From an uncultured Acidobacteriota bacterium (lineage in GTDB: Bacteria > Actinomycetota > Acidimicrobiia > Spongiisociales > ZC4RG35), in contig CAVRWT010000006.1 in NCBI GenBank assembly GCA_963724825.1, forward strand, positions 66,295-130,294: a stretch of 64,000 nucleotides of DNA, in the 5' to 3' direction. The translations under genes and the position numbers were made by a program. Position 1 is the stretch's first letter; the number at the start of each line of letters is the position of its first letter. This document shows, piece after piece, positions 16,665 through 55,411 of the stretch. The notes under the pieces were generated by a model. It made no database searches and had not been told where the DNA came from. It saw only the letters and a list, made by a program, of their open reading frames with translations.

Positions 16665-16705
16665 GGCGCGTATAACCGTCATTGAGGCCAGACAAGGTCA
16701 TGAAC

Positions 16706-39861: not shown

Positions 39862-39870
39862 GGCTGCCCC
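39847..39870 (+). terminator. 8-bp GC hairpin overlapping the small-ORF stop codon
   Basis: GGGGCAGC-tgcctgag-GCTGCCCC. There is no U-tract, so this is weak. Confidence 0.3.
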
Positions 39871-39928
39871 TGCCCGGGTGCGCCCTGTCACCGGGAATAG
39901 CCCAGCCTTCCCAACCTTTGTAACCGGT

Positions 39929-40456: not shown

Positions 40457-41083
40457 CTAGGGCGAGATCCTGTGGTCGTTGGTGCGACCGACCACGAACC
40501 AGATCGCATGGACCGGCTCATCACCGATATTGAACAGGCGGTGTGGCTGAGTCGAGTCGAAGCCGATCGAGTCCCCGGGCTCTAGCTCGTAGGTGTCGAA
40601 GCCGAGCTGGATCCCGAGACGGCCGGAGATGATGAAGCCGTATTCCTTGCCGTTGTGCCGCATCAGCGACTCATCCGGAGTGGACGCGCCCCCAACCTCG
40701 TAGACGGCATGGAGAAAGTCGATTCCCTGATCGGTGTCACGACTGAGTTGTTCCCAGCGGACTCCTGAGGCGAGGTCGATGGTCTCGCGATCGTCGGGGT
40801 GGACCAGCGGGCTCGGCCCGCCGTTGGCAACCGCAGCCTTCTTCCCCGGCGCACCGCTTGAAGGCGAGTGATCGGCCCCGCGGAGGAGCTTGTCCAGCGA
40901 GAGATCGAGCTCGGTGACGATGGCGTACAGGGTCCCCACCGAGGGCTTGGAGAGGCCGCTCTCGAGTTGCGAGATGAGGCTGGGCGAGAGTCCGAGGCGT
41001 CGGGCCAGTTCGCGCTGGCTGATTCCAGCCTTGGTCCTCTCGTCCCGGAGTCGATCGCCGATTCCCTCAAGCTCCTCAGTCAA
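40457..41083 (-). CDS. XRE-family HTH transcriptional regulator with a C-terminal cupin sensor domain
   Basis: HTH: ISQRELARRLGLSPSLISQLESG. Cupin: GKEYGFIISGRLGIQLG...YELEPGDSIGFDSTQPHRLFN. Confidence 0.85.
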   Translation of the reverse strand: MTEELEGIGDRLRDERTKAGISQRELARRLGLSPSLISQLESGLSKPSVGTLYAIVTELDLSLDKLLRGADHSPSSGAPGKKAAVANGGPSPLVHPDDRETIDLASGVRWEQLSRDTDQGIDFLHAVYEVGGASTPDESLMRHNGKEYGFIISGRLGIQLGFDTYELEPGDSIGFDSTQPHRLFNIGDEPVHAIWFVVGRTNDHRISP

Positions 41084-41125: not shown

Positions 41126-41821
41126 CTACATCAGGAGCCAGCCACCGTCCACGTAGAGGTTGACACCATTCACGGATGGGTTCTCGAGAAGGAAAACCGT
41201 GGCATCCACCACGTCCGCCATCGTCACCAGGCGCTTGGTTGGGGTCCGAGCCAGCACCGCGTCCAATGGTTTGTCCTTCCAGTACGGGCTGTCACCGACG
41301 ATTCCAGGGTGCAGCGCATTGAACCGGACAGGAGAGAGCTCGACCGCGAGGGCTCGAATCATGGAGCTGACGCCCCCGTTGACGGTGGTGACGGTGATCG
41401 ATCCGGGGTAAGGGCGATCCTTGGCCCGGCCTCCGAAGAGAACCACCGAGCTCGTCTCGGTGAACCTGGCGAGTAAAGCGTGGATGACCTCGACGTAGCT
41501 CACCAGCTTCATCGTCGTCAGCTGGGTCCCGGCGTCGATGTCGTACTCCTTGGCGAAGTTGTTGTCCCGGGCAATGGCGGCCAGAACAAGACGCGACACA
41601 GAGCCGACCTCGTGCAGGGCGGGTGCGATAGCTGAAGGATCGGTGAGGTCGAATCCGATGCCCGTCACGTCGCCGTCGATAGTGGAGGCGATCTCGACGG
41701 TGCGGTCGGGGTCGCTACCCGTGATCACCACTGGGCTCCCGCCGGCCGCGTAGTGGCGAGCCACCTCCAACCCGAGGCCGCTGGTTCCCCCCACCACAAT
41801 CACGTTGCCGTTTTCCATCAT
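41126..41821 (-). CDS. SDR family oxidoreductase
   Basis: VVGGTSGLGLEVA glycine-rich motif and SDR length (231 aa). It lies upstream of, and on the same strand as, the XRE-cupin regulator. Confidence 0.75.
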   Translation of the reverse strand: MMENGNVIVVGGTSGLGLEVARHYAAGGSPVVITGSDPDRTVEIASTIDGDVTGIGFDLTDPSAIAPALHEVGSVSRLVLAAIARDNNFAKEYDIDAGTQLTTMKLVSYVEVIHALLARFTETSSVVLFGGRAKDRPYPGSITVTTVNGGVSSMIRALAVELSPVRFNALHPGIVGDSPYWKDKPLDAVLARTPTKRLVTMADVVDATVFLLENPSVNGVNLYVDGGWLLM

Positions 41822-41893
41822 CGAGTTCCTGTTTCTCCGGGTCTCCGACGCCGGCTGGCCGGGAGGCGAAGCCTACATCTGTTAGGCAGGGCG

Positions 41894-41911
41894 TGTGTAG
41901 TGTCACTGATC
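41894..41911 (+). promoter_or_regulatory. Conserved 18-nt motif copy 1 (TGTGTAGTGTCACTGATC) in the SDR/bicupin divergent region
   Basis: Contains the 9-bp palindrome AGTGTCACT. Ends 22 nt upstream of ATG 41933. Confidence 0.45.
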
Positions 41912-41932
41912 GGTCGAGTGCTTGGGAGCCAA

Positions 41933-42829
41933 ATGTCGACGCACATCGTCAAGAAAGCCGGAGATCACGACTATCAGGTGCCGGGAGGCTTCGAAGGGCG
42001 AAGTCAGGGCTACTTCGGGGATGCAATCGTCAACGAGCCTGCGGGTGGGGTTCAGATGGGATTCCAGGTGTCGCGGCTCGATCCCGGCGGGCAGGTGGCC
42101 GGCCACCTTCACTCATTCGAGGAGACCCTCTACGTCATCGATGGGATGGTCGTCGTCGACCTTCCCGAAGGGAGTTACGAGCTCGGTCCCGGCGACTACG
42201 GGCTGATCCCGGTGGGTGTTCCGCACTCGCTTCGGAACACCGGTGGGGCTCCTGCGAGTCTGGCGGAGATGAGGGCGCCACTCCCTCGCGAGCGCCACGA
42301 GTTCGACACCTATTTCGTGGAGGCGCCATCGGCAGGAGTGCCGCTTCGCATCGACGTTCGTGACCCGCGAACTCGCAGCTTTGGCCATATCGACGCGGAG
42401 AACATGGATCCCGCAACGCAGACCCAGGACCGCCTTGCCCTGAGTGCGAGCATGCGCACCGCACTCCTCGTCTACAGCGGGATCTCGGTCAAGATGATGA
42501 TCGACTCCGACCTGGGAGCCGATCTGTCGACGATGTTCATGGTCCAGTACGTGCCGGGCGGATTCGCAGGAGCGCATGACCACCCGCTCGAGGAGGCCTA
42601 TCTCATCCTCGAAGGGGAGGTCGAGGCCGGGTTCGACGGGGTCAAGTACCACATGGTGCCCGGTGACGTGGCCTGGGCAGGTGTCGGGTGCGTTCACGAG
42701 TTTCGCAATGTCGGCACCGGCCCGGTGCGGTGGCTCGAGACTCAGGCGCCACAGCCGCCGGCCCGTCATAGCTACCGGTTCCGGAGGGACTGGGCGTACC
42801 TGACTGAGGCGCTGGCCGCCCCGGACTGA
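41933..42829 (+). CDS. Bicupin protein (two cupin barrels), function unknown
   Basis: ORF 41753-42829 from MSTHIVKKAGD. There are two cupin motifs (GHLHSFEETLYVIDG...PVGVPHSLRN and AHDHPLEEAYLILEG...GCVHEFRN). Confidence 0.7.
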   Translation: MSTHIVKKAGDHDYQVPGGFEGRSQGYFGDAIVNEPAGGVQMGFQVSRLDPGGQVAGHLHSFEETLYVIDGMVVVDLPEGSYELGPGDYGLIPVGVPHSLRNTGGAPASLAEMRAPLPRERHEFDTYFVEAPSAGVPLRIDVRDPRTRSFGHIDAENMDPATQTQDRLALSASMRTALLVYSGISVKMMIDSDLGADLSTMFMVQYVPGGFAGAHDHPLEEAYLILEGEVEAGFDGVKYHMVPGDVAWAGVGCVHEFRNVGTGPVRWLETQAPQPPARHSYRFRRDWAYLTEALAAPD

Positions 42830-42896
42830 GATGAGTGCTGGATCAATCCCTGTCGGCTTTACGGACCTGTTTTGTGAGGCTGAACCGAATGCGATT

Positions 42897-42914
42897 TGTG
42901 TAGTGTGACTTATC
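42897..42914 (+). promoter_or_regulatory. Conserved 18-nt motif copy 2 (TGTGTAGTGTGACTTATC) upstream of the amidohydrolase/ABC operon
   Basis: Intergenic; ends 118 nt upstream of TTG 43032. Confidence 0.45.
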
Positions 42915-43031
42915 AGTGAGTGGCCTCAACACCCCACTTTCGGCCGCGGCGTGCATCGGAGAAAGGGCACTTTTGTTGCCTGGCTCACAGCTTGAGGCGG
43001 TGGCGGACCGACACCAGGACGGAGGGAGCTC

Positions 43032-44324
43032 TTGAAAGGGCGGACCCTGCTTCGCGGTGGGTGTGTTCTGACACTGGGTAAGACCAATTACGCCGAGGCC
43101 GATGTCTTGATCGATGGCGAGAAGATCGTCGAGATCGGCCCCGGGCTTCGGGCCCGCGATGCAGAGGTCGTCGATGCGACCGACACGATTGTCATGCCGG
43201 GATTCGTCGACGCTCACCGCCACGTCTCAGAGTCGCTGTTCCGCAATTTCGGCGATTCGTCTTCATCATCGGTCTACGGGCCTCACTATCAGCCGGATGA
43301 CGCATATGCGGCCACTCTGATCGGGTTGCTCGGCGCCATCGACACCGGGATCACGACGGTGGTCGATTGGTTCGGCATTGGTTCCTCCGAAGCGCTGGTT
43401 GACGCCGCGCTTCAAGCACACGCCGACTCGGGGATCCGGTCGGTCTTTGCCTACGCCGGGCAAGGAGCCGACGGATGGCAATCCGATCTCAAGAGCATCA
43501 CTGCGCGGGCCACATCCCACCCACTGCGCGATCTCGCAGCTGGCGCGGGAACGCCGGCGCGTGACTCATTGGACGAAGTGGCGGCCGATTGGTCGGTCGC
43601 AAGGGATCTCGGTCTGAGAATCCACACTCATGTCGGCGTCGACTCCGAGGTCGCGCCGGGATTGGTGCGCCAAATCTCGGATCGAGGCCTACTTGGCGAT
43701 GACGTCAACTTCGTTCAATGCACCTACCTGGACGATGCCGACTTCGATGCGATCGCATCGTCGGGTGTTTCCGTGTCACTGACCCCATCCAGCGCGATGT
43801 CCGGGGGTCAGGCGAGGCCGCCGATGCAGGAAATGATCGATCGTGGCATTCGCCCCGGCCTGGGCGTGGGCTCCGATCAGTTCGCGCCCGGCGACATGTT
43901 CGCCCAGATGCGGACCGTGATCTCGGTGCAGCACGCCACTCTCTTCGACCTGAAGCTCGCGGGCAAGGCAGGAATTCCAACTCTCCTCAACACCCGCGAG
44001 GTGCTTCGGTATGCCACCGTCAACGGTGCCCGGGCGGCCGGCGTCAGCGACCGGGTGGGAACCCTCGTCCCCGGCTCGCAGGCCGACATCATCCTGCTCC
44101 GCACCGATACGCCCAACATCTTCCCGATCAACGATCCGATCGGAGCGGTGGTCTGGGGGATGGACACTTCGAATGTCGATTGGGTCTTCGTCGCCGGTCG
44201 CCCACTCAAGCGCGGCGGTGTCCTCGAGGGCGATCTGGACAGCGCAGCCGAGCTCGCGAGCAAGGCCCAGCATCGAGTCGCTGAGGCAGCCGGGCTCCTC
44301 GTGGGCTCCGGGGAGGTGAAGTGA
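43032..44324 (+). CDS. Metal-dependent amidohydrolase (TrzA/AtzA/cytosine-deaminase-like superfamily)
   Basis: MPGFVDAHRHV (HxH), an internal HTHV motif, and C-terminal GTLVPGSQADIILL. GGAGGGA SD before TTG 43032. Confidence 0.8.
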   Translation: MKGRTLLRGGCVLTLGKTNYAEADVLIDGEKIVEIGPGLRARDAEVVDATDTIVMPGFVDAHRHVSESLFRNFGDSSSSSVYGPHYQPDDAYAATLIGLLGAIDTGITTVVDWFGIGSSEALVDAALQAHADSGIRSVFAYAGQGADGWQSDLKSITARATSHPLRDLAAGAGTPARDSLDEVAADWSVARDLGLRIHTHVGVDSEVAPGLVRQISDRGLLGDDVNFVQCTYLDDADFDAIASSGVSVSLTPSSAMSGGQARPPMQEMIDRGIRPGLGVGSDQFAPGDMFAQMRTVISVQHATLFDLKLAGKAGIPTLLNTREVLRYATVNGARAAGVSDRVGTLVPGSQADIILLRTDTPNIFPINDPIGAVVWGMDTSNVDWVFVAGRPLKRGGVLEGDLDSAAELASKAQHRVAEAAGLLVGSGEVK

Positions 44325-45371
44325 CGACCACGAAGTCACCGTCATCGGCCCTGACCCGCTTCGTCGTGGCCTCCCGGTACATGCCGGTCTACCTCGCCTG
44401 ATCCTGTTGGTGGTTGTGGCCTCGATCGCAGCGCCCGCCACACTGTCCGAGTGCGGGTCTCGAGCGCGATCGCTCCTCTGGGCACTTATCTGGCTATCGC
44501 AGCACTTGGACAGATGCTGGTGATCATGACCGGCGGCATCGATCTGAGCGTCCCGGGAGTCTTCCTACTCGGCGGCCTGATCATGGTGGGAGTCGGTCAA
44601 CAATCCGACGATCAAATCTGGGTTGCGTTGCTCACCGCTGTCGGGGTGGCTGCTGCTATCGGACTGGTGAACGGGCTCCTCATCGGTGGCCTCAAGTTGA
44701 ATCCGCTCATCGTGACTCTGGCAGTCGGCCAAATCGTGGCCGGAGTCGCCAACCGTTACTACAACACCGTTGCCATCCAGAAGCCGGTGCCGGAGGGGCT
44801 CACCGACTGGGCGACGACACCGTTCCTCGGCGTCAGCCGGATCTTCTGGATCGGAGTTGGGCTGACGCTGGTGCTGGTCGTCATCTTCCGATATACGGGG
44901 GTGGGAAGGAGATTCCAGGTGGTAGGGGCCAACCCGGTCGCCTCCACTGTCATTGGGTTGCGAGTCAATCTCAACCAGATCGCCGCATACGTGGTGGCGG
45001 CCATCTTTTACGCGACGGCCGGGATACTGCTTGCGGCGTCCCTTCGATCGCCCGGAATCACGGTTGGTCTTCCCTACCTGCTGGGCCCGATCGCCGCAGT
45101 GGTCATCGGCGGGGCCTCATTGACCGGTGGTCTGGCGAGCCCGGTGTCGACCTGGGCGGCCGCGTTCTTCCTCGCCGGGCTGAACCAGATGATGCGGGTC
45201 ATTGGGTTGCCAACCGCCCTGCAATTCGTGGTCTTCGGCCTGGTCATCATCGGTGGGATGCTGGTGTCCGGTGATCGCATCATCAAGAGCGTCGAAAGGG
45301 TTTTGCGCGACCGGTCGAGACCGGGGAGGCGCAATGAAGGAACTCTCGCCGTCGAAGGCGGCGAGACGTGA
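44321..45371 (+). CDS. CUT2-type (ribose/xylose-like) ABC transporter permease; 5' region crosses three phases (two apparent 1-nt deletions near 44399 and 44450)
   Basis: GTG 44321 overlaps the upstream TGA (GTGA) and gives TTTKSPSSALTRFVVASRYMPVYLA. Phase 1 continues as LILLVVVASIAAPATLSE (TM1). ORF 44451-45371 then gives RVSSAIAPLGTYLAIAALGQMLVIMTGGIDLSVPG... Length is 1051 nt (3n+1). Confidence 0.7.
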
Positions 45372-45435
45372 GAGAAGGAGAAACTGACCGCAACACAAGA
45401 GCGGGACGCAAACAACAGTCAATGGATGGAGGAGG

Positions 45436-46782
45436 ATGATGATGAAACACAGGGTGTTAACCCTGATCGCAGTTCTGGCGGTCGTCATGGTCGCCTGTAC
45501 AGGCGACGTGACCGAGTCGAGCACCACGGCTGCAGCAGAGCCGACGACTACGGCGGCTGCGGAGCCCACCACCACGGTTGGCGGTGAGACTTCGACAACC
45601 GCCGGGGGCGAGGATCCGCTCGCAGCATATGGCGAGACCACAGCGGCCGACCCAGCGCTGGTCGAGAAGGCAATGGGCACGACGGAAGGCGTACCTGACA
45701 TCGTGCTCGCCGCGGTTGCGCGGGCGAATCAGGATCTCGACGACGACACCATTGCCAAGGCCATCGAGTGCTACACGAATGCAGTCGAGTGCGACACCGG
45801 CACCGGCGGTGAAGTGATCATGGGATACGCCGACGGCGGCGGTCTCAACGTCTGGCGTCAGGTGACCCGGATGGAGGCAATCCTCCAGGCCCTCACCTAC
45901 CCCGAGATCGGCACCATCGTCATGCGTGACGCACAGTGGTCGACCGACCCTGCGGTTCCGATCGGTGACATCAACTACATGGTGGAGCGTGGCGTCACGT
46001 TCATCATCGGCTACCCCGACTGGGGCTCCGCCCTCGGCGACGCAATCAAGGCTGCTGAGGCAGCCGGCATCCCGTACATGTCCTACTCGGCAGGCTACGT
46101 CGGCCTTCCCGGGACCGATGGTGCGCTCGCACCCGGTACTGATTATCTGGGAGTTGTCGGTGAGGACCTCTGTGCCCTCGGCGAGAGCTTTGCCACGATC
46201 ATCAACGAAGGGGTGGGCACGGGCATGATCGGCGTGATGGGTGGGACACCGGGCAACGCCCTGTCCCTCGGATGGCAGCAGTGCCATTTCCCGGCATTGG
46301 CCGACACCATCGAGGTCATCGACCCGCCGGCGGATCCGAACTCCACGACCGGAGACACCTACTGGGCCAACGACATCGCCAAGGACCTTGTGGGCGGATG
46401 GCTTTCGACCAATCCGGACCTCGCTGGGTTCAGCTATGAGTACGCCGACGGGCTGTACACCGCACTTCAGGATGTCGAGATCGGCACCATGACGATCGCG
46501 GTTCGGACCGACGAGCAGACCTTGTTCTGCGACTGGGCCGAGCGAAACAACCCGAACTACAACATCTGGTACTCGGCGGGAGGCAACTTCCAGTCGAGGG
46601 TCGCGGTGACCGCTCAGATGATGAATCTGCAGGGTGCGGAGATCCCGGGTGAGATCATCGTTCCCCACGTGATGCGGCAAGTCACGACAGCCGATTGCAA
46701 CCCCGACCGGGTGACCCCGACCGTTTCCGGCACCTCGCTGGTGCCCGATCCGGTCCTCGCCCAGATGTACCCGGCTGGATGA
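45436..46782 (+). CDS. ABC transporter substrate-binding lipoprotein (periplasmic-binding-protein type I), ligand unknown
   Basis: GGAGGAGG SD, lipobox VVMVACTG, a TTAAAEPTT x2 linker, 448 aa. It lies between the permease and ATPase genes of one operon. Confidence 0.75.
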   Translation: MMMKHRVLTLIAVLAVVMVACTGDVTESSTTAAAEPTTTAAAEPTTTVGGETSTTAGGEDPLAAYGETTAADPALVEKAMGTTEGVPDIVLAAVARANQDLDDDTIAKAIECYTNAVECDTGTGGEVIMGYADGGGLNVWRQVTRMEAILQALTYPEIGTIVMRDAQWSTDPAVPIGDINYMVERGVTFIIGYPDWGSALGDAIKAAEAAGIPYMSYSAGYVGLPGTDGALAPGTDYLGVVGEDLCALGESFATIINEGVGTGMIGVMGGTPGNALSLGWQQCHFPALADTIEVIDPPADPNSTTGDTYWANDIAKDLVGGWLSTNPDLAGFSYEYADGLYTALQDVEIGTMTIAVRTDEQTLFCDWAERNNPNYNIWYSAGGNFQSRVAVTAQMMNLQGAEIPGEIIVPHVMRQVTTADCNPDRVTPTVSGTSLVPDPVLAQMYPAG

Positions 46783-48374
46783 GTAACGGCGATCTCGGAG
46801 GAGAGTCGGCGACCGGGACACCGGTCCTCGAGCTCGACGGTGTCTATCGCCAGTTCGGCGCGGTTCGAGCGCTGACAGATGTCAGCTTCGACTGCCGGGC
46901 TGGTGAGGTTCACGCCCTCGTGGGCGAGAACGGCTCGGGCAAGTCGACTCTCCTCGGGATTGCCAGCGGGTTCGTAGAGCCCGATCGGGGATCGGTGCGC
47001 ATCGGGGGAGCCCGATTGCGCACCGATTCTCCGGCTCTCGCCAGAAAGCTCGGCCTGGCGATGGCCTACCAGGACACCTCATCGATCCTGGCCCAGCCGG
47101 TCAAGAACAATCTCTACATGGCAGCGCCCCCTGATGAACGGCCGCCCTACTGGAGACGGAAGAAGTGGGCCCGGCGCCTATTGGGCGAGTTCGACCTCGA
47201 CTTCGAGTTGTTTCCCGACGCGCCCGTTGGATTCCTGACACTCGCCGAGCGTCAGATGTTCGAGGTAGCCAAGGCGCTGGTATCGAATCCCAAGGTGCTG
47301 CTTCTCGACGAGCCGACGACGGCCCTTGGCCCCGATGAAGTCGAGGCTTTGCACCGAACCGTCGCCGCATGCCGGCGGCGTGGCGTGGGCGTTGTCTATG
47401 TGAGTCATCGTCTGCCCGAGATCCTGGAGATCGCGGACCGGATAACCGTGCTTCGTGACGGGAAGACCAGGGGGACGTTCGACGCTCGTTCCACCTCCGA
47501 GCGTGACCTGGTCGAGCTCATTGTGGGACGTCCCTTCGAGGCAGCGTTCCCACCCGCAGCTCCGCTCACCGGCGAGCGACGAGAGGTGCTCGTGGTCGAT
47601 GCTCTGCAAGGCCAGTCGTTTGGCCCGGTCAGCTTCACCCTTGAAAGCGGGGAAATAGTTGGGATCGCAGGGGCGGAAGGCAACGGTCAACCCCAGCTCT
47701 TCGACACTCTTTCCGGGAGAACGCCACCACGCGCCGGCCGGGTCACATGTGACGAGAAGGGCCTCACCCTGATTTCGACACACGAGGCGGTCAATTCCGG
47801 GATCATGTTGCTGCCCGGCGATCGCAAGCAAGAGGCGTTGATGCCGGTCCTCGGCGTGCGCGTCAATTCCACCGTCCAGTCACTCAAGCTCTTCAGCGTT
47901 TTCGGGCTCTTGAAGAGACGTGCCGAACGTGCCGCCGTGAAGGATCTGGTCGCCCGACTCGAGGTTCGCACCCCCTCCTTGGAGCAGCCTGTCGAGTTCC
48001 TCTCCGGTGGCAACCAGCAGAAGGTTTCGGTATCCCGAACATTTCTCAGGGAGCCCGCGGTGATCCTCGCCTATGAGCCGACTCAAGGGGTGGACGTCGG
48101 GTCCCGTTTCGACATCTACAAGGCACTACGGGCCCGGACCGATGCCGGGGCCGCATTGTTGGTCAAGTCGAGCGACCCGATCGAGCTCTCGGGCCTCTGC
48201 GATCGAGTCTTGGTGATGTCACGGGGAACGATCATCGAAGAGATCCCGGGCGACGAGCTCGACGAGTTGCGCATCGTGGAGGCCATCGTCCGCGGGCCGG
48301 GGCTGTCCCGTGCCGGACGCTCGCCATTCGGTGTCGCCATGCCGAAGGCTCCGTCCAAGGAGGTCGTTTCATGA
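46779..48374 (+). CDS. Sugar-type ABC transporter ATP-binding protein with two NBDs (RbsA/XylG-like)
   Basis: ORF 46695-48374 from MSNGDLGG (ATGA overlap with the SBP stop). Contains GENGSGKST, LLLDEPTTALG, a second LSGGNQQK, and AYEPTQGVD. Confidence 0.9.
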   Translation: MSNGDLGGESATGTPVLELDGVYRQFGAVRALTDVSFDCRAGEVHALVGENGSGKSTLLGIASGFVEPDRGSVRIGGARLRTDSPALARKLGLAMAYQDTSSILAQPVKNNLYMAAPPDERPPYWRRKKWARRLLGEFDLDFELFPDAPVGFLTLAERQMFEVAKALVSNPKVLLLDEPTTALGPDEVEALHRTVAACRRRGVGVVYVSHRLPEILEIADRITVLRDGKTRGTFDARSTSERDLVELIVGRPFEAAFPPAAPLTGERREVLVVDALQGQSFGPVSFTLESGEIVGIAGAEGNGQPQLFDTLSGRTPPRAGRVTCDEKGLTLISTHEAVNSGIMLLPGDRKQEALMPVLGVRVNSTVQSLKLFSVFGLLKRRAERAAVKDLVARLEVRTPSLEQPVEFLSGGNQQKVSVSRTFLREPAVILAYEPTQGVDVGSRFDIYKALRARTDAGAALLVKSSDPIELSGLCDRVLVMSRGTIIEEIPGDELDELRIVEAIVRGPGLSRAGRSPFGVAMPKAPSKEVVS

Positions 48375-48404
48375 CGAACTACATCGACTCGTGCGCGACA
48401 GGAG

Positions 48405-50825
48405 GTGCGCAAGGTCCTGCGCAACGCCCGCGACAAGAACAAATGGCGGAAGGTCGTCAAGGTTCGCCTCTGGATGCCGGTCGCCCTCCAGATCCTCCTC
48501 ATCATCGGTGTTGTTTGGTACACCAACTCCCGCTTCCCCGGGTTCGTCAACACCTCGAACATCGCCAACATCCTTCTCCTGGCAGTGCCCCTGGCGATCG
48601 TCGTCATCGGGCAGACCCACGCACTTCTCGTCGGATACCTCGATCTCTCGGTGGGTGCGATGATCAGCCTCGGGGTGGTCATCGCTTCCTTCTGGATCCC
48701 TGCCGGTGCGACGACCAGCCAGATGCTGACCGGGGTGGCGACGATCTTCGCCTGCGGCCTGGCGCTGGGTCTGGTCAACGCCGGCCTGGTTCGAGGCGTG
48801 AAGATTCCGTCGATCATCGCCACGCTGGCGACTCTCAGCATTCTCGACGGGATCTCACTGACGCTTCGAGCCACGCCCGGAGGCACCATCGATCCGGCAT
48901 TCACCTCGTTGCTGCGAGGCGGTGTCGGACCGGTGCCGCTCTCTTTCATCCTGGTGGTGGTGGGAGCCGGCATTCTCGACCTCTGGCTTCACTCCAGCGG
49001 GTCCGGGCTTCAGGTGCGCTCGGTTGGATTCGACGAGAGGTCGGCGAGGCGATCCGGAGTCCGGACCACCTGGGTGAGGGTCCGCGCCCTGGTCCTCTCC
49101 GCATCGTTTGCTGCGCTGGCGTCGTTCTTCGTGATGACACGCTCCGGGGTGGGCAATGCGCAGATCGGAACGAGTTATGCCCTGAACAGCATCACGGCAG
49201 CGGTGCTGGGTGGCGCCGCCCTCTCCGGGGGGAGGGCAACCTTCACCGGAGGCGTGGTCGCTTCGGTCCTGCTCGCCGTGATCATCACCGTGCTCCCCTT
49301 CCTCGGCCTCGGCCCGGAATACGGGTTGATGATCATCGGAGTCCTGGTCCTGATCGGGATCATCCTCTTCCAGGTTGGGGACATCAAGGAGCTGGTGAAG
49401 CGGAACTACCGTCGGGCCCGACGAATAGTCGTCGGAACCCGTCCCCCGGCTGCTGCCGAGCTTCCCGTCCTCTATCCCGTCGGAACCGACTTCAAAGTGA
49501 TGCCAGTCGGTCGCAAGCTCATCACGGGCGGGATCGTTCTCAGCCTCGACTCGAGCGTTGGGGATTTCAACAACGCGGACATCCTCATCGATGGGGACAA
49601 GATCCTCGCGGTGGGGCCCAATCTCCAAAACGGGGAGGCCGAGCACATCGACGCCACCGGGATGATCGTCATGCCCGGGTTCGTCGACTCCCACCGGCAC
49701 ACCTGGGAAGGCATCCTTCGCAACATCGGCACCGACGTTCCTCTCGAGGGGCGGACCAGCTACATCTCATTCGTCCTCCACAAGCTGGCTCCGGCGTTCC
49801 GACCCGAGGATGTCTATGCGGGGAACCTCGTTTCGACGCTGGGAGCCATCGACGCCGGGGTGACCACCCTTCTCGACTGGTCTCACATACAGGCCTCGCC
49901 CGCCCACACGGACGCCGCGGTGAAGGCGTTGGGGGATTCCGGGATGCGAGCCGTCTTCGCCTACGGGTTCCCATGGTGGGGCAAGTGGGAAGAGCGCCAA
50001 CCGAGTTGGTTCGTGCGGACTGCCACCGAGCATTTCTCTTCGAACAGTCAGCTCCTCAGTCTGGCCCTCGCCGCCCCCGGCCCGGAGTTCGTCGACTTCG
50101 AGGTGGCCCGTGACCACTGGAAGCTGGCTCGTGAGACCGGGGCGAGGATCACGGCCCATGTCGGGGTCGGCACCTACGGCCAGGACGCCAAGGTCCAGGA
50201 GATGGGGGAGGCAGGGCTGCTCGGTCCTGACACCACCTACATCCACTGCACGACTCTCAACGACACCGAGATCCAAATGATCGTTGATACCGGCGGCACG
50301 GTGTCGCTGGCGTCACCGGTCGAGATGATGATGGGCCACGGGATGCCGCCCATCCAGAAGTTCCTTGACCGTGGGTTGAGTCCCAGTCTGAGCATCGACG
50401 TCGAGACCAACGTCCCTGCGGACATGTTCAACCAAATGCGCTCCGTTGTCGCGTTACAACGAGCGCTCGTCAACGGGACCGACAAGTCTCAGATCTCGAT
50501 GCGCGAGGTCCTCGGGTGGGCCACGATCGAGGGCGCAAAGGCCAATGGCCTCGACTCGAAGGTCGGAACCCTCACCCCGGGCAAGCAAGCCGACGTCATC
50601 ATGCTCCGCACCAACCGGGTGAATGTGACCCCGCTCAACGACCCGGCGACCGCAGTGGTTGCGGGTATGGACACCTCGAATGTGGACACGGTCTTGATCG
50701 CAGGGCGGGTCATGAAGCAGAAGGGCAAATTGCTCCACGTTGACTGGCCGGCGGTTCGTCGGATGGTCGGCGAGTCTCGGGACTACGTGGTCGAGAAGTC
50801 GGGTTTCAAACTCCCCAAGATTTGA
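48405..50825 (+). CDS. One uninterrupted 806-aa ORF: CUT2 ABC permease (about aa 1-345) fused in frame to a second amidohydrolase (from MPVGRK at 49500). It may be two genes merged by an indel
   Basis: Permease part: VVIGQTHALLVGYLDLSVGA and 8-10 TM helices, ending KELVKRNYRRARR. Amidohydrolase part: MPGFVDSHRHT, AHVGVG, GTLTPGKQADVIML, a paralog of 43032-44324. The permease 5' end may really start at ATG 48371 (ATGA overlap with the ATPase stop), which needs one more phase change. Confidence 0.6.
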   Translation: MRKVLRNARDKNKWRKVVKVRLWMPVALQILLIIGVVWYTNSRFPGFVNTSNIANILLLAVPLAIVVIGQTHALLVGYLDLSVGAMISLGVVIASFWIPAGATTSQMLTGVATIFACGLALGLVNAGLVRGVKIPSIIATLATLSILDGISLTLRATPGGTIDPAFTSLLRGGVGPVPLSFILVVVGAGILDLWLHSSGSGLQVRSVGFDERSARRSGVRTTWVRVRALVLSASFAALASFFVMTRSGVGNAQIGTSYALNSITAAVLGGAALSGGRATFTGGVVASVLLAVIITVLPFLGLGPEYGLMIIGVLVLIGIILFQVGDIKELVKRNYRRARRIVVGTRPPAAAELPVLYPVGTDFKVMPVGRKLITGGIVLSLDSSVGDFNNADILIDGDKILAVGPNLQNGEAEHIDATGMIVMPGFVDSHRHTWEGILRNIGTDVPLEGRTSYISFVLHKLAPAFRPEDVYAGNLVSTLGAIDAGVTTLLDWSHIQASPAHTDAAVKALGDSGMRAVFAYGFPWWGKWEERQPSWFVRTATEHFSSNSQLLSLALAAPGPEFVDFEVARDHWKLARETGARITAHVGVGTYGQDAKVQEMGEAGLLGPDTTYIHCTTLNDTEIQMIVDTGGTVSLASPVEMMMGHGMPPIQKFLDRGLSPSLSIDVETNVPADMFNQMRSVVALQRALVNGTDKSQISMREVLGWATIEGAKANGLDSKVGTLTPGKQADVIMLRTNRVNVTPLNDPATAVVAGMDTSNVDTVLIAGRVMKQKGKLLHVDWPAVRRMVGESRDYVVEKSGFKLPKI

Positions 50826-50827
50826 AG

Positions 50828-52048
50828 ATGCATGACGTCTGCATCGTCGGAGCCGGGTTGGTGGGGATGAGCGTTGGCCGGGCCGTCCTCGACCAGTATC
50901 CAGGTTCCTCCGTCGTGGTTCTGGATAAGGAGGCCGGGGTGGCCGCCCATCAGAGCAGCCACAACAGCGGCGTTGCCCATTCCGGTCTCTACTACCGCCC
51001 CGGATCCCTCAAGGCACGGCTTTGTGTGGAAGGGCGCGCCGAGCTGGAGCGACTCTGTGACTCAGCCTCCATCCCGTTCCGTCGGCTGGGGAAGTTGGTG
51101 ATCGCCACCGAGCCGGCCGAGCTCGGAGCCCTCGATGAGCTGGAGCGCCGGGGAACAGCCAACGGGTTGACCGGGATGCGTCGGCTGGACCTTGCAGGCA
51201 TTCGTGAGATCGAGCCGGCGGCGACCGGGCTCCAGGGGCTACACGTGCCCGAAGCCGGTGTCGTGGACTTTCCTGGAGTGGCGGACCACCTTGCTGCCGA
51301 ACTGCAACGGAACGGCGCCGAGGTGCGTACCGGCCATGCCGTGACCGCAATCGACCACATAGCCGATGGGGCCCGGATCATGGCCGGTGACCAGGAAATC
51401 CGAGCCCGGATCATGGTCAATTGCGCCGGGCTCCACTCCGACCGGGTTGCCGCTCTGGCAGGTGTGAAGAGCGATATCCGGATCGTCCCCTTCCGGGGCG
51501 AGTACTACACCCTCGATCCGGAGGTCTCCCATCTGGTCAGGGGGCTCGTCTATCCGGTGCCGGACCCACGGTTCCCATTCCTCGGAGTGCACTTCACCCG
51601 CCGGGTGGACGATTCGGTGGAGGTGGGGCCTAACGCGGTGCTCGCCTTGGGCCGGGAGCAGTATCGGGGCTCTCCAGTCGACTGGGGTGACGTCAAGGAT
51701 GTCGCGACCCTTGGAGGGTTCTGGCGATTGGCCGCCAAGCATTGGCTGACCGGCGGAGCCGAAGTTCTCAGATCGAAATCGAGGTCCCTCTATGCCCGCT
51801 CCGCCCAGCGACTGATCCCCGCCCTCAGAAGTGAGCACCTTCGTCATGGAGGCGCCGGTGTGCGGGCCCAGGCGCTGGGTCGTGATGGCCGATTGATCGA
51901 CGACTTCGTCATCGAAGAGGTCGGGGCGACGTTGCACGTCCTCAATGCTCCATCGCCGGGGGCCACGGCGAGCCTCGCGATCGGAGCCCATATTGCAGGC
52001 CTGCTCAGGCCCCAGTTGGCCGGGTTGACCGGTGGAAGGGGTGTGTAG
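50828..52048 (+). CDS. lhgO: L-2-hydroxyglutarate oxidase/dehydrogenase (FAD-dependent)
   Basis: Aligns by eye along its whole length with remembered E. coli LhgO: VGAGLVGMS, HQSSHNSGVAHSGLYY, PFRGEYY, YPVPDPRFPFLGVHFT, GVRAQAL, NAPSPGATASL. Confidence 0.85.
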   Translation: MHDVCIVGAGLVGMSVGRAVLDQYPGSSVVVLDKEAGVAAHQSSHNSGVAHSGLYYRPGSLKARLCVEGRAELERLCDSASIPFRRLGKLVIATEPAELGALDELERRGTANGLTGMRRLDLAGIREIEPAATGLQGLHVPEAGVVDFPGVADHLAAELQRNGAEVRTGHAVTAIDHIADGARIMAGDQEIRARIMVNCAGLHSDRVAALAGVKSDIRIVPFRGEYYTLDPEVSHLVRGLVYPVPDPRFPFLGVHFTRRVDDSVEVGPNAVLALGREQYRGSPVDWGDVKDVATLGGFWRLAAKHWLTGGAEVLRSKSRSLYARSAQRLIPALRSEHLRHGGAGVRAQALGRDGRLIDDFVIEEVGATLHVLNAPSPGATASLAIGAHIAGLLRPQLAGLTGGRGV

Positions 52049-52059
52049 TGTGACTGTTC
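52042..52059 (+). promoter_or_regulatory. Conserved 18-nt motif copy 3 (TGTGTAGTGTGACTGTTC) upstream of the M24/E1 operon
   Basis: Overlaps the lhgO stop codon. Ends 77 nt upstream of ATG 52136. It is followed by GTGAC-n9-GTCAC. Confidence 0.45.
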
Positions 52060-52135
52060 ACTGGTCACCCAGCCTGCCGAGGGTCGCGGTTCGAAAACGT
52101 GATGAAGAACTGACAGGAAAGAGGAGGAGAGAGCC

Positions 52136-53389
52136 ATGACCGACTTTCCGGTAGCCACCACCCCGGCCCCTGGGGTCATGGGGGTGGATTGGGAGGATCG
52201 CGTCGATTTTCCGCGACTGCGCGCCTATCGCCTCGAGCGGGTACGGCAGCAACTGGAGGCCAATGGCCTGGGCGCGGTGCTCCTCTTCGAGACCTCCAAC
52301 ATTCGCTACGCCACCGCCACCCAGATCGGCTACTGGGCTTTCAACAAGGGTGAGCGCTTTGCACTGATCACGAGGAAGGGCCGTCCCCGAATCTGGGACT
52401 TCGGCTCGGCAGCCAAGGCGCATCGTCGGCAACTGCCCGAGATGTATGACCTGGAGAACTCGATCGGTGGGAATACCGGCCTCCAAGGCGCCATCGGTCC
52501 CAGCTCGGGGCTCCACACCCGTGCCGCTGCCGAGATCGCGGCGGTGCTTCGTGACGAAGGGCTTATCGACGATCTCCTGGGAGTCGACATGGCGGAGACC
52601 GCGGTATTCCTTGCCCTGCAGAAGGAAGGCCTCCAGGTCACCGATGGCCAGCAGGCGATGATGCTCGCCCGTGAGATCAAGAGCTCGGACGAGATCGTCC
52701 TCCTCTCCCAGGCCAGCGCGATGGTGGACGGCGTCTATCACGAGATCTATGAGACTTTGAAGCCCGGGATCCGGGAATCCGACATCGTGGCTTTGGCCCA
52801 CGGGCGCCTGTTCGAGATGGGCTCCGAGTTCGTCGAGGCCATCAATTCGATCGCCGGGGAGAGGTGCAGCCCGCACCCGCATGTCTTCAGCGACCGGATG
52901 ATCCGGCCCGGCGACCAGGCTTACTTCGACATCATCCACGCCTACAACGGCTACCGGACCTGTTACTACCGGACCTTCGTCGTGGGGCGGGCGACCACCG
53001 CACAGCGCGACGCCTTCAAGCAGTCGCGGGAGTGGATGGACGCCGCAATCGAATTGGTTCGACCAGGCAACACCACCGACATGATCGCCAAGGTGTGGCC
53101 AAGGGCCGAGGACTTCGGCTTCGTGGATGAGATGGACGCCTTCGGCCTCCAATTCGGCCACGGCGTCGGGGTCGGCCTGCACGAGCGGCCGATCATCAGC
53201 AGGCTCAACTCACTCGACGACCCGATCGAGATCAAGGAGGGCATGTACTTCGCCCTCGAGACTTACGCACCGGCCACGGACGGGCGATCGGCAGCCAGGA
53301 TCGAAGAGATGATGGTGGTCACCGCCGACGGGCCACAGATCACCACGCTCTTCCCCTGCGAGGAGTTGATGGTGGCGAATGAGTACTGA
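52136..53389 (+). CDS. M24 family metalloenzyme (creatinase / DddP-like subfamily), substrate unknown
   Basis: AGAGGAGGAG SD; 417 aa. N-domain LLFETSNIRYATATQIGYW...WDFGSAAKAH, and a pita-bread domain (HGVGVGLHERP, FALETY). The subfamily assignment rests on memory only. Confidence 0.7.
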   Translation: MTDFPVATTPAPGVMGVDWEDRVDFPRLRAYRLERVRQQLEANGLGAVLLFETSNIRYATATQIGYWAFNKGERFALITRKGRPRIWDFGSAAKAHRRQLPEMYDLENSIGGNTGLQGAIGPSSGLHTRAAAEIAAVLRDEGLIDDLLGVDMAETAVFLALQKEGLQVTDGQQAMMLAREIKSSDEIVLLSQASAMVDGVYHEIYETLKPGIRESDIVALAHGRLFEMGSEFVEAINSIAGERCSPHPHVFSDRMIRPGDQAYFDIIHAYNGYRTCYYRTFVVGRATTAQRDAFKQSREWMDAAIELVRPGNTTDMIAKVWPRAEDFGFVDEMDAFGLQFGHGVGVGLHERPIISRLNSLDDPIEIKEGMYFALETYAPATDGRSAARIEEMMVVTADGPQITTLFPCEELMVANEY

Positions 53390-54449
53390 GGTCGACGCCG
53401 GGCTCTACGACTACGCCCAGCGCCCACCCCGGCTCCCGAAGGCGACCAAGCCGGAGAACGACCGTCTCGAAATCGACCTCGAAACCCGCATCGAGATGTT
53501 CGAGATGCAACAGGTGCTCCGACAGTTCGAGGATCGGGTCTACGACCTCTTCATGCAGAATCTGGTCAAGGGGACGAGCCACCTTTCGTTGGGTATGGAG
53601 GCCATCGCCACCGGCGTGGCCAAGGCGATGCGCCCCGACGACTACACCTTCGCCACCTATCGGGGCCATGCCCATACCGTCGCCAGGGGGGCTCCCCTCG
53701 GACCGGTGCTGGCGGAGCTCCTGGGGAGGGACACCGGCATCCTCGGGGGTAAGGGCGGCTCGATGCACCTCACCTCCGTCGAGCACGGGATGATGGGCAG
53801 CTACGCCATCATCGGCGCCCATCTCTGCGTCGCCAACGGCGCAGCCTGGTCGGCGCAACTACGGGGAACCGATCAGGTGGCTGTGGCCTTTTTCGGCGAC
53901 GGCACCACCAACATCGGAGCCTTCCACGAGGCCCTCAACCTGGCGTCGATTTGGCACCTCCCCGTGGTCTTCGTCTGTGAGAACAACCTGTACATGGAGT
54001 ACACGCCGATCGACTTGGTGACCGCGGCTTCGAATCCCGCCGCCGGTCGGGCGCCCGCCTACGACCTCGAGCAGATCGTGATCGACGGCAACGACGCCGA
54101 TGAGGTGTATGTGACCGCGAGATTGGCCATCGAGAAGGCCCGACGGGGCGAAGGGCCTTCTCTGATCGAGGCAGTCACTTACCGGCACGGCGGCCACAGT
54201 CGGGCCGACCCCGGCAAGTATCGCCCCGCCCAGGAGGTCGAGGCCTGGATGGCGCACGACCCGCTGCCGACCTATCACCAGCGCCTCCTGCGCCTCGGGG
54301 TCAACGAATCCAGGCTTTCCGACATCGTCCATCAGGTCACCGATCGCGTCGAGGAAGCCACAGCCTTTGCCAAGGCCGGGGAACGCCCGGGAGAACAAGT
54401 GCTGATGACCGACGTCTGGGCCGATGGGGGGTCGTCTTGGCGGAACTGA
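53379..54449 (+). CDS. Thiamine-diphosphate-dependent 2-oxoacid dehydrogenase E1 component, alpha subunit
   Basis: YRGHAH, GGKGGSMH, the GDGTTNIGAFHEALNLA TPP-binding motif, and VCENNLY. Confidence 0.85.
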   Translation: MSTEVDAGLYDYAQRPPRLPKATKPENDRLEIDLETRIEMFEMQQVLRQFEDRVYDLFMQNLVKGTSHLSLGMEAIATGVAKAMRPDDYTFATYRGHAHTVARGAPLGPVLAELLGRDTGILGGKGGSMHLTSVEHGMMGSYAIIGAHLCVANGAAWSAQLRGTDQVAVAFFGDGTTNIGAFHEALNLASIWHLPVVFVCENNLYMEYTPIDLVTAASNPAAGRAPAYDLEQIVIDGNDADEVYVTARLAIEKARRGEGPSLIEAVTYRHGGHSRADPGKYRPAQEVEAWMAHDPLPTYHQRLLRLGVNESRLSDIVHQVTDRVEEATAFAKAGERPGEQVLMTDVWADGGSSWRN

Positions 54450-55411
54450 GCTACCGCGAGGCCGTCGCCCGGGGAATCGCCCAGGAGATGCGGCGCGATC
54501 CGACGCTGGTCATGCTCGGCGAGGACATTGCCGGCGCCGGGGGGGTTTTCAAGACGACAGTCGGCCTGCTCGAGGAATTCGGCCCGACCCGGATCCGCGA
54601 CACCCCGATCTCCGAGCAGGCGATCCTGGGGGCGGCGATGGGGGCGGCGATGACCGGGGTGCCGGTGATCGCCGAGATCATGTTCTCCGACTTCCTGGCG
54701 GTGTGCTTCGACATGGTCGCCAATGAGATGGCGAAGACGAGGTACATGACCGGCGGGCAGTTCACGGTCCCGGTGGTGATTCGCACCGCCAACGGGGGCG
54801 GAGTGCGGTTCGGCGCCCAGCACAGCCAGAGCGTCGAGAACTGGTGCATGATGATCCCCGGGCTCAAGGTGGTGGCGCCGTCGACCCCTGAGGACGTCGT
54901 CGGCCTGATGGCGGCGGCGGTTCGCGATCCCGACCCCGTCGTCTTCTTCGAGCACAAGTCGCTGATGGCAACCAAGTCAGAGGTTCCAGACACCGAGATC
55001 GTCGGAACACTCGGTGAGGCCCGGGTGGTTCGCGCCGGCAGCGACTGCACGATTGCGGCCCTGGCCTTCATGGTGCCTCGGGCCCTGGAGGCGGCCGAGC
55101 GTCTCGCCGCCGAGGGGGTCTCGGCCGAGGTGATCGACCTTCGGAGCCTGGTCCCGCTCGACACCAAGGCGATCCTGAGCTCGGTGGCGAAGACGGGCTG
55201 GCTGTTCACCGTCGAGGAGAATCCGCGGTTGTGTGGTTGGGGGGCCGAAGTGGCGTCGATCGTCGCCGAGGAGGCTTTCTGGGATCTGGATGGCCCGGTG
55301 ATTCGGATCACCACCCCCCACATTCCCCTTCCCGCAGCTGAGAATCTCGAGGATCTAGCGATCCCGTCGGTGGACCGGATCTACGAGACGATCAGGAAGT
55401 CACTCGGCTGA
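54437..55411 (+). CDS. 2-oxoacid dehydrogenase E1 component, beta subunit
   Basis: YREAVARGIAQEM, GEDIAGAGGVFKTT, RDTPISEQ, FFEHK. The TTG start overlaps the alpha gene by 13 nt. Confidence 0.9.
   Translation: MAELSYREAVARGIAQEMRRDPTLVMLGEDIAGAGGVFKTTVGLLEEFGPTRIRDTPISEQAILGAAMGAAMTGVPVIAEIMFSDFLAVCFDMVANEMAKTRYMTGGQFTVPVVIRTANGGGVRFGAQHSQSVENWCMMIPGLKVVAPSTPEDVVGLMAAAVRDPDPVVFFEHKSLMATKSEVPDTEIVGTLGEARVVRAGSDCTIAALAFMVPRALEAAERLAAEGVSAEVIDLRSLVPLDTKAILSSVAKTGWLFTVEENPRLCGWGAEVASIVAEEAFWDLDGPVIRITTPHIPLPAAENLEDLAIPSVDRIYETIRKSLG

Follow-up and report, generated by a model that had tools for sequence, protein, structure and literature searches.

Three near-identical repeats in a 64,000-nt stretch of DNA from an uncultured lineage of the Acidimicrobiia (the window) are, to judge from the sequence, most likely binding sites of one XRE-cupin regulator, each overlapping a promoter, and a single protein would thus switch three operons of what is most likely an uncharacterized nutrient-degradation gene cluster. 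The reading that explains the whole best is that each copy represents a combined promoter and operator that is repressed by the regulator, and we assign it a probability of roughly 70%. As a gene switch, the system is solid but ordinary, and its mechanism would not surprise specialists in XRE-cupin regulators.

A search with the pattern TGTGTAGTGTSACTKWTC yielded exactly three matches in the window, all of them on the plus strand and without any addition when up to two mismatches were allowed; dinucleotide shuffles gave an expectation of 0.01 matches, and none of 100 shuffles contained three copies. The first-pass annotation had described the repeats as 18-mers at 41894-41911 (TGTGTAGTGTCACTGATC), 42897-42914 (TGTGTAGTGTGACTTATC), and 52042-52059 (TGTGTAGTGTGACTGTTC) that share 15 of 18 positions and are located between genes or across a stop codon; these points were borne out by the pattern search, the three copies themselves, and the gene coordinates, respectively. 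The length required correction, since the conserved element comprises 19 nt with the consensus TGTG[T/C]AGTG[T/A][C/G]ACTnAnCA, and conservation extends beyond the search pattern (A16, 79%; C18, 95%; A19, 77%) and does so in all gene contexts. Its symmetry had been recognized in part: the 9-bp core AGTGTCACT is indeed a 4+1+4 palindrome, to which copy 1 conforms fully and copies 2 and 3 with a single mismatch each, but the true symmetry is a wider, imperfect dyad about position 10, TGnnnAGTGnCACTnnnCA, in which positions 1-19, 2-18, and 6-9 with 11-14 are complementary (six to seven of nine pairs overall). The left arm of the dyad is better conserved than the right arm, and more symmetric versions are found in distant orthologous loci, e.g., TGTCCAGTGTCACTGTTCA. 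A palindromic 19-bp dyad would fit the binding of a dimer, as expected for a site of the XRE-cupin family. A 16-bp palindrome, GTCACTGA|TCAGTGAC, was considered first as the true operator and was rejected, because the conservation of positions 20-24 largely reflects the start and first codons of a gene discussed below (gene X) and because the corresponding arm is missing at sites 1 and 3 of the window.

The scanned assembly (2.55 Mb in 23 contigs, 89% complete) contained no further copy at up to three mismatches. A genome-wide weight-matrix scan, which had been proposed as a check, was carried out with a 24-nt matrix built from other genomes only; it returned 31.1, 38.6, and 34.6 bits for sites 1, 2, and 3, respectively, and 11.1 bits for the next best hit, so that the three sites stand out and nothing dispersed is seen. 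The pairwise identity of the cores amounts to 16 to 17 of 19 positions, compared with only 22 to 43% in the flanking 45 to 60 nt, and this contrast between decayed flanks and retained cores indicates that the three copies are not parts of a longer repeat. A weak fourth hit (11 bits), situated between genes upstream of an SBP_bac_5 gene at 16701-16724, was treated as a chance match, because it has persisted in the closest relative alone (91% identical DNA) and is already missing from the next one (79%). A literature search with the motif string retrieved only unrelated primers.

Site 1 (41894..41912, plus strand; TGTGTAGTGTCACTGATCG) is a putative 19-nt operator flanked by the divergent SDR and bicupin genes, which start at 41821 (minus strand) and 41933 (ATG), respectively, with the candidate -10 hexamer TAGTGT at 41898-41903 on the plus strand. 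Transcription is predicted to start near 41910, which would leave a 23-nt leader with GGGAG before the ATG of the target unit, the bicupin gene (41933..42829, plus strand), for whose protein no exact match was found in public assemblies. Site 2 (42897..42915, plus strand; TGTGTAGTGTGACTTATCA), also a putative operator, follows the bicupin stop codon (42829) and precedes the amidohydrolase gene (start at 43032), with a candidate -10 hexamer at 42901-42906 (plus strand) and a TTG start codon at 43032 that follows GGAGGGAG, and the predicted leader has about 119 nt. Its target unit (43032..52048, plus strand) encodes a TRZ/ATZ-type amidohydrolase, a CUT2-type ABC importer (permease, binding protein, double ATPase, permease), a second amidohydrolase, and an FAD oxidoreductase that resembles L-2-hydroxyglutarate oxidase (LhgO model, 505.9 bits versus a cutoff of 299). 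Site 3 (52042..52060, plus strand; TGTGTAGTGTGACTGTTCA), the third putative operator, overlaps the TAG stop codon of the FAD oxidoreductase gene (52046-52048) 77 nt before the M24 ATG at 52136, which is preceded by GGAGGAG; the candidate -10 hexamer is at 52046-52051 (plus strand), and the target unit (52136..55411, plus strand) comprises a creatinase/DddP/ectoine-hydrolase-like M24 enzyme and the alpha and beta subunits of a thiamine-dependent E1 component. A search of the literature on this gene cluster retrieved nothing relevant.

The regulator gene (40457..41083, minus strand) encodes 208 aa with an HTH_3 domain (residues 12-66, E = 2e-15) and a Cupin_2 domain (residues 127-196, E = 4e-15) and is present in a single copy in the genome. 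It is probably cotranscribed with the SDR oxidoreductase gene (41126..41821, minus strand), the first gene of the divergent SDR/XRE-cupin unit and a conserved neighbor of the regulator in those related loci that possess an SDR gene. A candidate -10 hexamer of the divergent promoter (TAGGCT, 41870..41875, minus strand) lies 18 nt from site 1. All three genomic sites are found within 11 kb of the regulator gene and upstream of cluster operons, and the same applies to the related loci. The N terminus of the protein is PuuR-like at 57.8 bits, i.e., below the family cutoff of 211; its HTH domain has changed little across 93 orthologues, and the solved chains nearest to this domain by sequence include the 434 and P22 c2 repressors.

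A survey of Acidimicrobiia MAGs yielded 124 nonredundant motif copies, and the next downstream gene is a cluster gene for 119 of them (gene X, 44; LhgO-like, 28; M24, 24; amidohydrolase, 16; bicupin, 7); one of the others precedes the regulator gene, and four are without an identified downstream gene. Wherever identified, the downstream genes are all encoded on the strand of the motif, a constant orientation that could partly reflect common descent. The bicupin start follows the motif at 39 to 43 nt in seven nonredundant loci, the orthologues of site 2 precede the first amidohydrolase gene in 16 loci, and those of site 3 precede either the M24 gene (24 loci) or gene X (44 loci). Of the 61 relatives, 21 carry the exact 14-mer, among them members of other genera and of another family, and the association with the cluster persists where the gene order differs or where the cluster is divided between two contigs (G020). 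The number of copies equals that of the forward transcription units, i.e., one in G019, two in G025, G031, and G021, and three in the genus under study. The proposal of a common regulator is supported by these data, as the motif occurs in the genome at three promoter regions only and is kept at the same cluster across genera.

The connection with the XRE-cupin protein is based on co-occurrence. All 24 relatives with the M24-E1 core and an XRE-cupin orthologue carry the motif or a variant of it, whereas it is absent from all 13 relatives that have the core (77 to 88% identity) without the orthologue; the latter contain neither an exact 14-mer nor a dyad site in the sequence covered around the core, which extended up to 9 kb on either side. 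Among the 61 relatives, 19 have both the orthologue and the exact motif, 7 the orthologue only, 2 the motif only, and 33 neither of them (Fisher p = 3e-8). The exceptions are attributable to contig ends (G009, G011, and G029) or variant sites (G023, G042, G053, G054, and G059), and G044 possesses an orthologue of the regulator and has neither the cluster nor the site. Across these 61 relatives, including the 13 core-only genomes, motif and regulator appear to have been gained and lost together, and at the level of genome comparison the presence of the motif follows that of the regulator gene rather than that of the enzyme genes. The XRE-cupin gene is also the sole transcription factor gene seen adjoining motif-bearing clusters among the neighboring genes looked at, and no replacement factor was found among the few genes scanned beside the M24-E1 core of three regulator-less clusters. 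The nomination of the XRE-cupin protein in the first-pass annotation is thereby strengthened, because the presence of the motif follows the orthologue even among genomes that keep the enzymes. Its remark on a TnGTnnnACn shape, which is that of GntR-type operators, carries no weight; a GntR domain is absent from the cluster genes scanned with Pfam, and the resemblance is therefore incidental.

A second constraint on the element probably comes from promoter function. The TAGTGT at motif positions 5-10 conforms to TANNNT, the -10 pattern of actinobacteria, and this hexamer occupies the same positions in every class A copy (n = 90), whereas class B (CAGTGA, n = 32) differs from it at two positions, which are precisely both T's of TANNNT. 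A separate TANNNT at motif positions 36-37, i.e., 31 to 32 nt further downstream, is present in 25 of the 32 class B copies versus 1 of the 90 class A copies; most class B copies stem from one clade, so that the compensatory -10 pattern amounts to few independent events. On the minus strand, a TANNNT at -24/-23 was found in 29 of 29 class B sites with a divergent SDR gene, the same offset as that of the hexamer at 41870..41875. TANNNT hexamers and leaderless transcripts have been described for Mycobacterium, and weak -35 elements are usual in the Actinomycetota, where a -35 hexamer is not obligatory. No convincing conserved -35 hexamer was present 16 to 19 nt upstream across the copies; site 3 has a TTGACC, yet at a spacing of 15 nt. 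A scan for E. coli-type promoters and terminators detected nothing at the three sites, as it demands at least four of six matches to TATAAT and TAGTGT falls short of this. The TGTG prefix was also considered as an extended -10 (TGn), but its TG does not stand in register with the hexamer, and this reading was dismissed. The suggestion that TAGTGT is a -10 element is hence supported by the class A/B pattern, but not as the alternative to an operator that it was meant to be; it is rather a second role of the same site.

In most of its 44 loci, gene X, which the window does not contain, has its start codon at the very edge of the motif (positions 20-22 or 23-25) and lacks a Shine-Dalgarno sequence; its transcript must therefore begin inside the motif. 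A tentative scenario, to which we give slightly less than even odds, is that of a portable promoter-operator cassette: the junction consisting of the LhgO-like 3' end, the cassette, and the gene X 5' end would have been copied before new units after the breakup of an ancestral single operon in this genus, and the coding stubs would have decayed while the cassette stayed intact. In the related genomes, the transcript would be leaderless or nearly so, with the start codon at the operator edge, and a single bound dimer could mask this codon as well as the -10 hexamer and the transcription start.

The proposed mechanism combines both constraints. A dimer of the XRE-cupin protein would recognize the 19-bp imperfect dyad, whose TAGTGT (positions 5-10) in the window copies may double as the -10 hexamer of a TANNNT promoter read by the housekeeping sigma factor, with a predicted transcription start at about motif position 17. 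Once bound, the regulator would cover this start together with the -10 hexamer and keep RNA polymerase off the bicupin gene, the amidohydrolase/ABC importer/LhgO-like operon, and the M24-E1alpha-E1beta operon. At site 1, it would in addition sit on the -35 position of the divergent SDR/XRE-cupin promoter, which falls on the left arm of the operator and makes autoregulation plausible. Binding of a substrate or intermediate of the pathway, presumably the ligand of the cupin domain, would release the protein and turn on the whole catabolic cluster. That the protein binds the motif is suggested by co-occurrence and dyad form, and repression rather than activation by the position of the sites and by analogy with characterized relatives.

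Two rival readings accept the operator and differ in the protein or in the sign of its action. The site may be bound by another transcription factor encoded elsewhere and the XRE-cupin protein may do something else, a reading that draws on the sequence-based nature of the proposed binding and on G044, with its orthologue but neither cluster nor motif. We consider it unlikely, because the XRE-cupin gene is the only regulator gene seen beside motif-bearing clusters, the 13 core-keeping relatives without it all lack the motif, the dyad form fits an HTH dimer, and the family is known for local regulation (PMC7901475). Equally unlikely is that the XRE-cupin protein binds the site and activates transcription, or activates and represses depending on its ligand. 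The sign of regulation is not readable from sequence, and poor -35 elements are common at activator-dependent promoters; such elements are, however, usual in the Actinomycetota anyway, the class A site covers the -10 hexamer and the predicted start, where bound proteins normally block the polymerase, and every characterized XRE-cupin factor in one survey is an inhibitor (PMC7901475).

The remaining readings dispense with a repressor. A special promoter element alone, e.g., for a dedicated alternative sigma factor, would account for the constant orientation toward downstream genes, the fixed position before start codons, and the strongly conserved left arm. It is very improbable in view of the dyad symmetry, which is even more pronounced in distant lineages, the behavior of class B, which keeps the dyad positions while it loses the T's of TANNNT and gains a separate -10 hexamer, the co-occurrence of the motif with the XRE-cupin gene, and the lack of a sigma factor gene among the cluster genes scanned. 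An action as RNA, i.e., as a leader hairpin or riboswitch-like 5' UTR element, could be suspected from copies that read GTCACTGATCAGTGAC, a potential hairpin, and from the leaders of 78 to 119 nt at sites 2 and 3. This reading has very little credibility, because the AGTG-T-CACT core cannot fold with a loop of 1 nt, the alternative stem is not kept (position 11 is either C or G, yet its partner 22 is G throughout, without compensation), its 3' arm is missing at window sites 1 and 3, and the gene X start codon at positions 20-22 would place most of the motif upstream of the transcript; no Rfam match was found in the window. Chance similarity or a dispersed or mobile repeat (REP/MITE-like) without regulatory role has nothing but the small copy number in its favor and is effectively refuted by the shuffles, the restriction to three genomic copies at one cluster, the preserved cores within decayed flanks, and the 124 nonredundant copies tied to one gene cluster. 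The combined promoter and operator repressed by the XRE-cupin protein is thus the reading that we retain.

The proposed switch would provide a concrete regulon (one regulator, one 19-bp site, three operons) for soil Acidimicrobiia, a class without genetics and with almost no known regulatory sites. It marks the membership of an uncharacterized, widely conserved catabolic cluster, which is thereby delimited to the bicupin, two TRZ/ATZ amidohydrolases, the CUT2 importer, the LhgO-like oxidase, the M24 hydrolase, and E1 alpha/beta. It also opens a route to the substrate, as the cupin domain should bind the substrate or an intermediate, and the purified protein together with the 19-mer could be turned into a ligand screen or biosensor. 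The comparison of classes A and B offers a clean natural separation of transcription factor constraints from promoter constraints within one site.

XRE-cupin factors of Pseudomonas (ErfA, PsdR, PauR, PA0535, and others) are local repressors of neighboring metabolic genes that bind palindromes as dimers, probably occlude promoters, and in some cases autoregulate (Trouillon et al. 2021, PMC7901475). The present regulator shares with them and with E. coli PuuR the N-terminal HTH_3 and C-terminal Cupin_2 domains, and with the Pseudomonas repressors the location beside the proposed target enzymes and transporters, a small local regulon, palindromic, dimer-fitting sites that overlap promoters, and likely autoregulation. 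It differs from the latter in its lineage (uncultured Acidimicrobiia), operator sequence, and target pathway, and its binding and repression are predicted ones; with PuuR, it shares sequence similarity in the HTH domain only. In contrast to both systems, the putative -10 hexamer forms part of the operator itself, and one and the same cassette is found at one to three transcription units. The HTH domain belongs to the same fold class as those of phage Cro/cI proteins (lambda cI, P22 c2, and 434), whose operators (17 bp for lambda cI, 18 bp for P22 c2, and 14 bp for 434) are comparable to the present odd-length dyad in size, central base pair, and overlap with the -10 hexamer. Phage context is missing here, a predicted ligand-sensing cupin replaces the cI-type C-terminal domain, and one site per promoter takes the place of tandem cooperative arrays. 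With actinobacterial housekeeping promoters, the element shares a hexamer that fits TANNNT and a weak or absent -35 element. As in leaderless actinobacterial promoters, gene X of the related genomes follows the hexamer at 10 to 13 nt without a Shine-Dalgarno sequence, but unlike strictly leaderless starts, this spacing gives a predicted leader of 2 to 6 nt.

Judging from comparative sequence analysis, the three motif copies at 41894, 42897 and 52042 (sites 1, 2 and 3) are probably 19-bp dyad operators that include a -10 hexamer and serve as binding sites of the neighbouring XRE-cupin repressor (40457-41083, minus strand), and a probable regulon of three operons, with autoregulation in addition, is defined by them. 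The first-pass annotation, which had noted a repeated motif at three promoter regions and proposed a common regulator, was confirmed in its observation and supported in its interpretation, which is sharpened here to a 19-bp dyad with a built-in -10 hexamer.

Pattern search with TGTGTAGTGTSACTKWTC recovered exactly these three matches in the window, all on the plus strand and without additional ones at up to two mismatches; the chance expectation from dinucleotide-preserving shuffles is 0.01, and 0 of 100 shuffles had three matches. Across the whole assembly (2.55 Mb, 64% G+C, 23 contigs; the window is C6:66295-130294), no fourth copy was detected at up to three mismatches. With a 24-nt weight matrix trained on motif copies from other genomes only, the sites reached 38.6, 34.6 and 31.1 bits, compared to 11.1 bits for the runner-up position of the genome. 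A dispersed repeat without promoter association, named beforehand as a potential refutation, was not borne out, because only these three sites score high genome-wide. The intergenic sequence TGAACAGTGTCACTGATAGTGGTT (16701-16724), located past a luciferase-like monooxygenase gene and 8 nt upstream of a 624-aa SBP_bac_5 binding-protein gene, has a 13-nt core in common with site 1; as a further site it was rejected as probably due to chance, since it scores 11 bits and is retained in the closest relative only.

According to Pfam and NCBIfam, the cluster comprises genes for a glyoxalase-fold protein (39842-40447, plus strand), the regulator, an SDR oxidoreductase (41126-41821, minus strand) and, all on the plus strand, a bicupin (41933-42829; ATG preceded by GGGAG), a first TRZ/ATZ-type amidohydrolase (43032-44324), a CUT2-type ABC importer (44451 to ~49500), a second TRZ/ATZ amidohydrolase (ending at 50825), an L-2-hydroxyglutarate-oxidase-like FAD enzyme (50822-52048; 505.9 bits versus a cut-off of 299), an M24 creatinase/DddP/ectoine-hydrolase-like enzyme (52136-53389) and E1 alpha plus E1 beta (53379-55411). 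The divergent SDR and bicupin genes flank site 1, site 2 is between the bicupin and first amidohydrolase genes, and site 3, 77 nt upstream of the M24 gene, includes the TAG stop codon of the FAD-enzyme gene. A single 806-aa open frame at 48405-50825, a putative fusion or indel artefact, carries an ABC permease domain (residues 52-317) together with an amidohydrolase domain (residues 421-769), which give two separate tblastn matches in relatives. The M24 gene and the E1 alpha/beta pair always occur together (52136-55411; related loci L132-L144), and the M24 identity of 77-98% across several families of the order is unusually high; the three genes appear to form an ancient pathway core.

Conservation extends beyond the search pattern to A16 (79%), C18 (95%) and A19 (77%) in each gene context, except for G19 in the copies preceding bicupin genes, and the element is therefore 19 nt long: T1 G2 T3 G4 [T/C]5 A6 G7 T8 G9 [T/A]10 [C/G]11 A12 C13 T14 n15 A16 n17 C18 A19. 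Its symmetry is that of an imperfect dyad centred on position 10, with complementary pairs 1-19, 2-18, 6-14, 7-13, 8-12 and usually 9-11, the form expected of the target of a dimeric HTH protein. Operators of lambda cI and P22 c2 are of comparable size, and the solved chains nearest to the regulator by sequence include the 434 repressor, the P22 repressor and the HTH_3-family regulator 1Y9Q. More symmetric variants, TGTCCAGTGTCACTGTTCA and TGTCCAGTGACACTAATCA among them, adjoin the regulator gene in distant orthologous loci (regulator 54-68% identical).

The exact 14-mer TGTGTAGTGTSACT is present in 21 of 61 related genomes, a set that includes eight or more additional genera of the family plus a second family, and a reversed-pattern control was near zero. 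At all inspected loci the motif precedes cluster genes and shares their strand, with an adjoining XRE-cupin orthologue, and this arrangement persists despite gene-order differences among genera: one copy precedes a single long operon in G019, two copies each are found in G025, G031 and G021, the genus of the window has three copies for three forward units, and in G020, whose cluster is divided between two contigs, each part has its own copy. Addition of 80 loci by regulator protein search, from uncultured Acidimicrobiia MAGs partly deposited under other phylum labels, resulted in 124 non-redundant copies, whose downstream genes are X (44), LhgO-like (28), M24 (24), amidohydrolase-1 (16), bicupin (7) and the regulator (1), with none identified for four copies. 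Gene X, absent from the window, encodes a 297-aa NAD-dependent beta-hydroxyacid dehydrogenase.

The proposal that the adjacent XRE-cupin protein is the common regulator gained support from the co-occurrence of motif and orthologue in the 61 relatives: both are present in 19 genomes, the regulator without the exact motif in seven, the motif without the regulator in two and neither in 33 (Fisher p = 3e-8). In G009 and G011, which have the motif, the contig stops at the expected regulator position; the regulator of G029 is located at a contig start, and G023, G042, G053, G054 and G059 have variant sites. G044 is the only relative with the regulator but without cluster or site; its 67%-identical orthologue (L115, G044:C1:96922-97500), near which cluster genes and motif are both absent, may have a different target in that genome. 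The strongest test comes from the M24-E1 core, which has a wider distribution than the regulator (39 of 61 genomes); 13 of these 39 relatives lack regulator and motif, often together with the rest of the island. All 24 genomes with core and regulator have the motif or a variant, whereas the exact 14-mer is absent genome-wide from all 13 with the core but no regulator orthologue, and no relaxed dyad was found in the core-flanking sequence retrieved for them (at most 9 kb per side, four contigs being only ~3 kb long). The motif therefore tracks the regulator rather than the enzymes. The 93 regulator orthologues share a strongly conserved HTH domain, in which the segment SPSLISQLESG is likely the recognition helix.

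Positions 5-10 of the motif, TAGTGT, conform to TANNNT, the -10 pattern of actinobacteria. Wherever a downstream gene was identified, the motif has the same orientation relative to that gene; this argues for a functional -10, because an operator that is purely symmetric has no need of a fixed orientation. Ninety copies carry TAGTGT (class A) and 32 carry CAGTGA (class B, TGTGCAGTGAGACTGAGCA); the latter lie between the SDR and LhgO-like genes in a single large clade plus a few others and retain the dyad positions, with exactly both T's of TANNNT altered. A TANNNT at motif positions 36-37 is found in 25 of the 32 class-B copies versus one of the 90 class-A copies, and each of the 29 class-B copies that face a divergent SDR gene has a TANNNT on the minus strand at offset -24/-23, a candidate SDR promoter. 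The extrapolated first codon of gene X (GTG or TTG) is at motif position 20 in ~30 of 44 loci, or an ATG is located at 23-25, and no Shine-Dalgarno sequence precedes it; strong ones precede other cluster genes. With a start at the motif edge and no Shine-Dalgarno sequence, the transcript should therefore begin inside the motif, and by this reasoning it must start ~7 nt past T10, leaderless or nearly so. Orientation, the class-B replacement hexamer and the gene X starts together argue that TAGTGT functions as a -10, an option that the annotation had already raised, and transcription in the window is predicted to start near 41910, 42913 and 52058. At site 1, a candidate -10 of the divergent SDR / XRE-cupin promoter, TAGGCT (41870-41875, minus strand), would place the -35 position on the left operator arm (TACACA, minus strand); because of this coincidence, one bound dimer could shut both this and the bicupin promoter.

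A promoter for a dedicated sigma factor would leave the dyad, class B and the regulator link unexplained and is very improbable. An RNA-level element is unlikely as well, since the window has no Rfam match, the central palindrome is unable to fold, and an alternative stem is uncompensated, position 11 being C or G while position 22 is always G. Binding of the motif by another transcription factor has little probability; the XRE-cupin gene is the sole regulator gene seen beside motif-bearing clusters among the part of the neighbouring genes that was screened. Activation instead of repression is less likely: published members of the XRE-cupin family repress metabolic genes in their own neighbourhood, bind palindromic sites as dimers and probably occlude the promoters, with autoregulation in some cases (PMC7901475).

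Beside the operators proposed here, remnants of other genes hint at the history of the copies. The genome has no gene X orthologue, only paralogues with 41% and 31% identity. The site 2 flanks (42860-42960) are similar to a junction seen in other genomes, "LhgO-like 3' end - motif - X 5' end", with TTTTGTGAGGCTGAACC upstream, tatcaGTGAGTG past the motif and ggccgcgg downstream; these flanks look like decayed versions of an LhgO-like 3' end (TTTTGTGAGGCTGAACC, in which the stop-codon region is recognisable) and of an X 5' end. Site 3 is followed by the X 5' end remnant ggtcgcggttc, which corresponds to the codons for V-A-V-L-G in the intact X genes of G009 and G003, and then by the M24 leader (52060-52135). 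Between the sites, identity is 16-17/19 in the core versus 22-43% in the flanks. These similarities suggest that site 2 arose via duplication of an LhgO-like/X junction, and that the cassette may have been copied with gene stubs during cluster rearrangement, selection keeping the cassette only. Directly past site 2, a short inverted repeat AGTGG-N10-CCACT (42919-42938), with arms that do not vary among several congeneric genomes, may represent a weak hairpin in the leader or an additional half-site.
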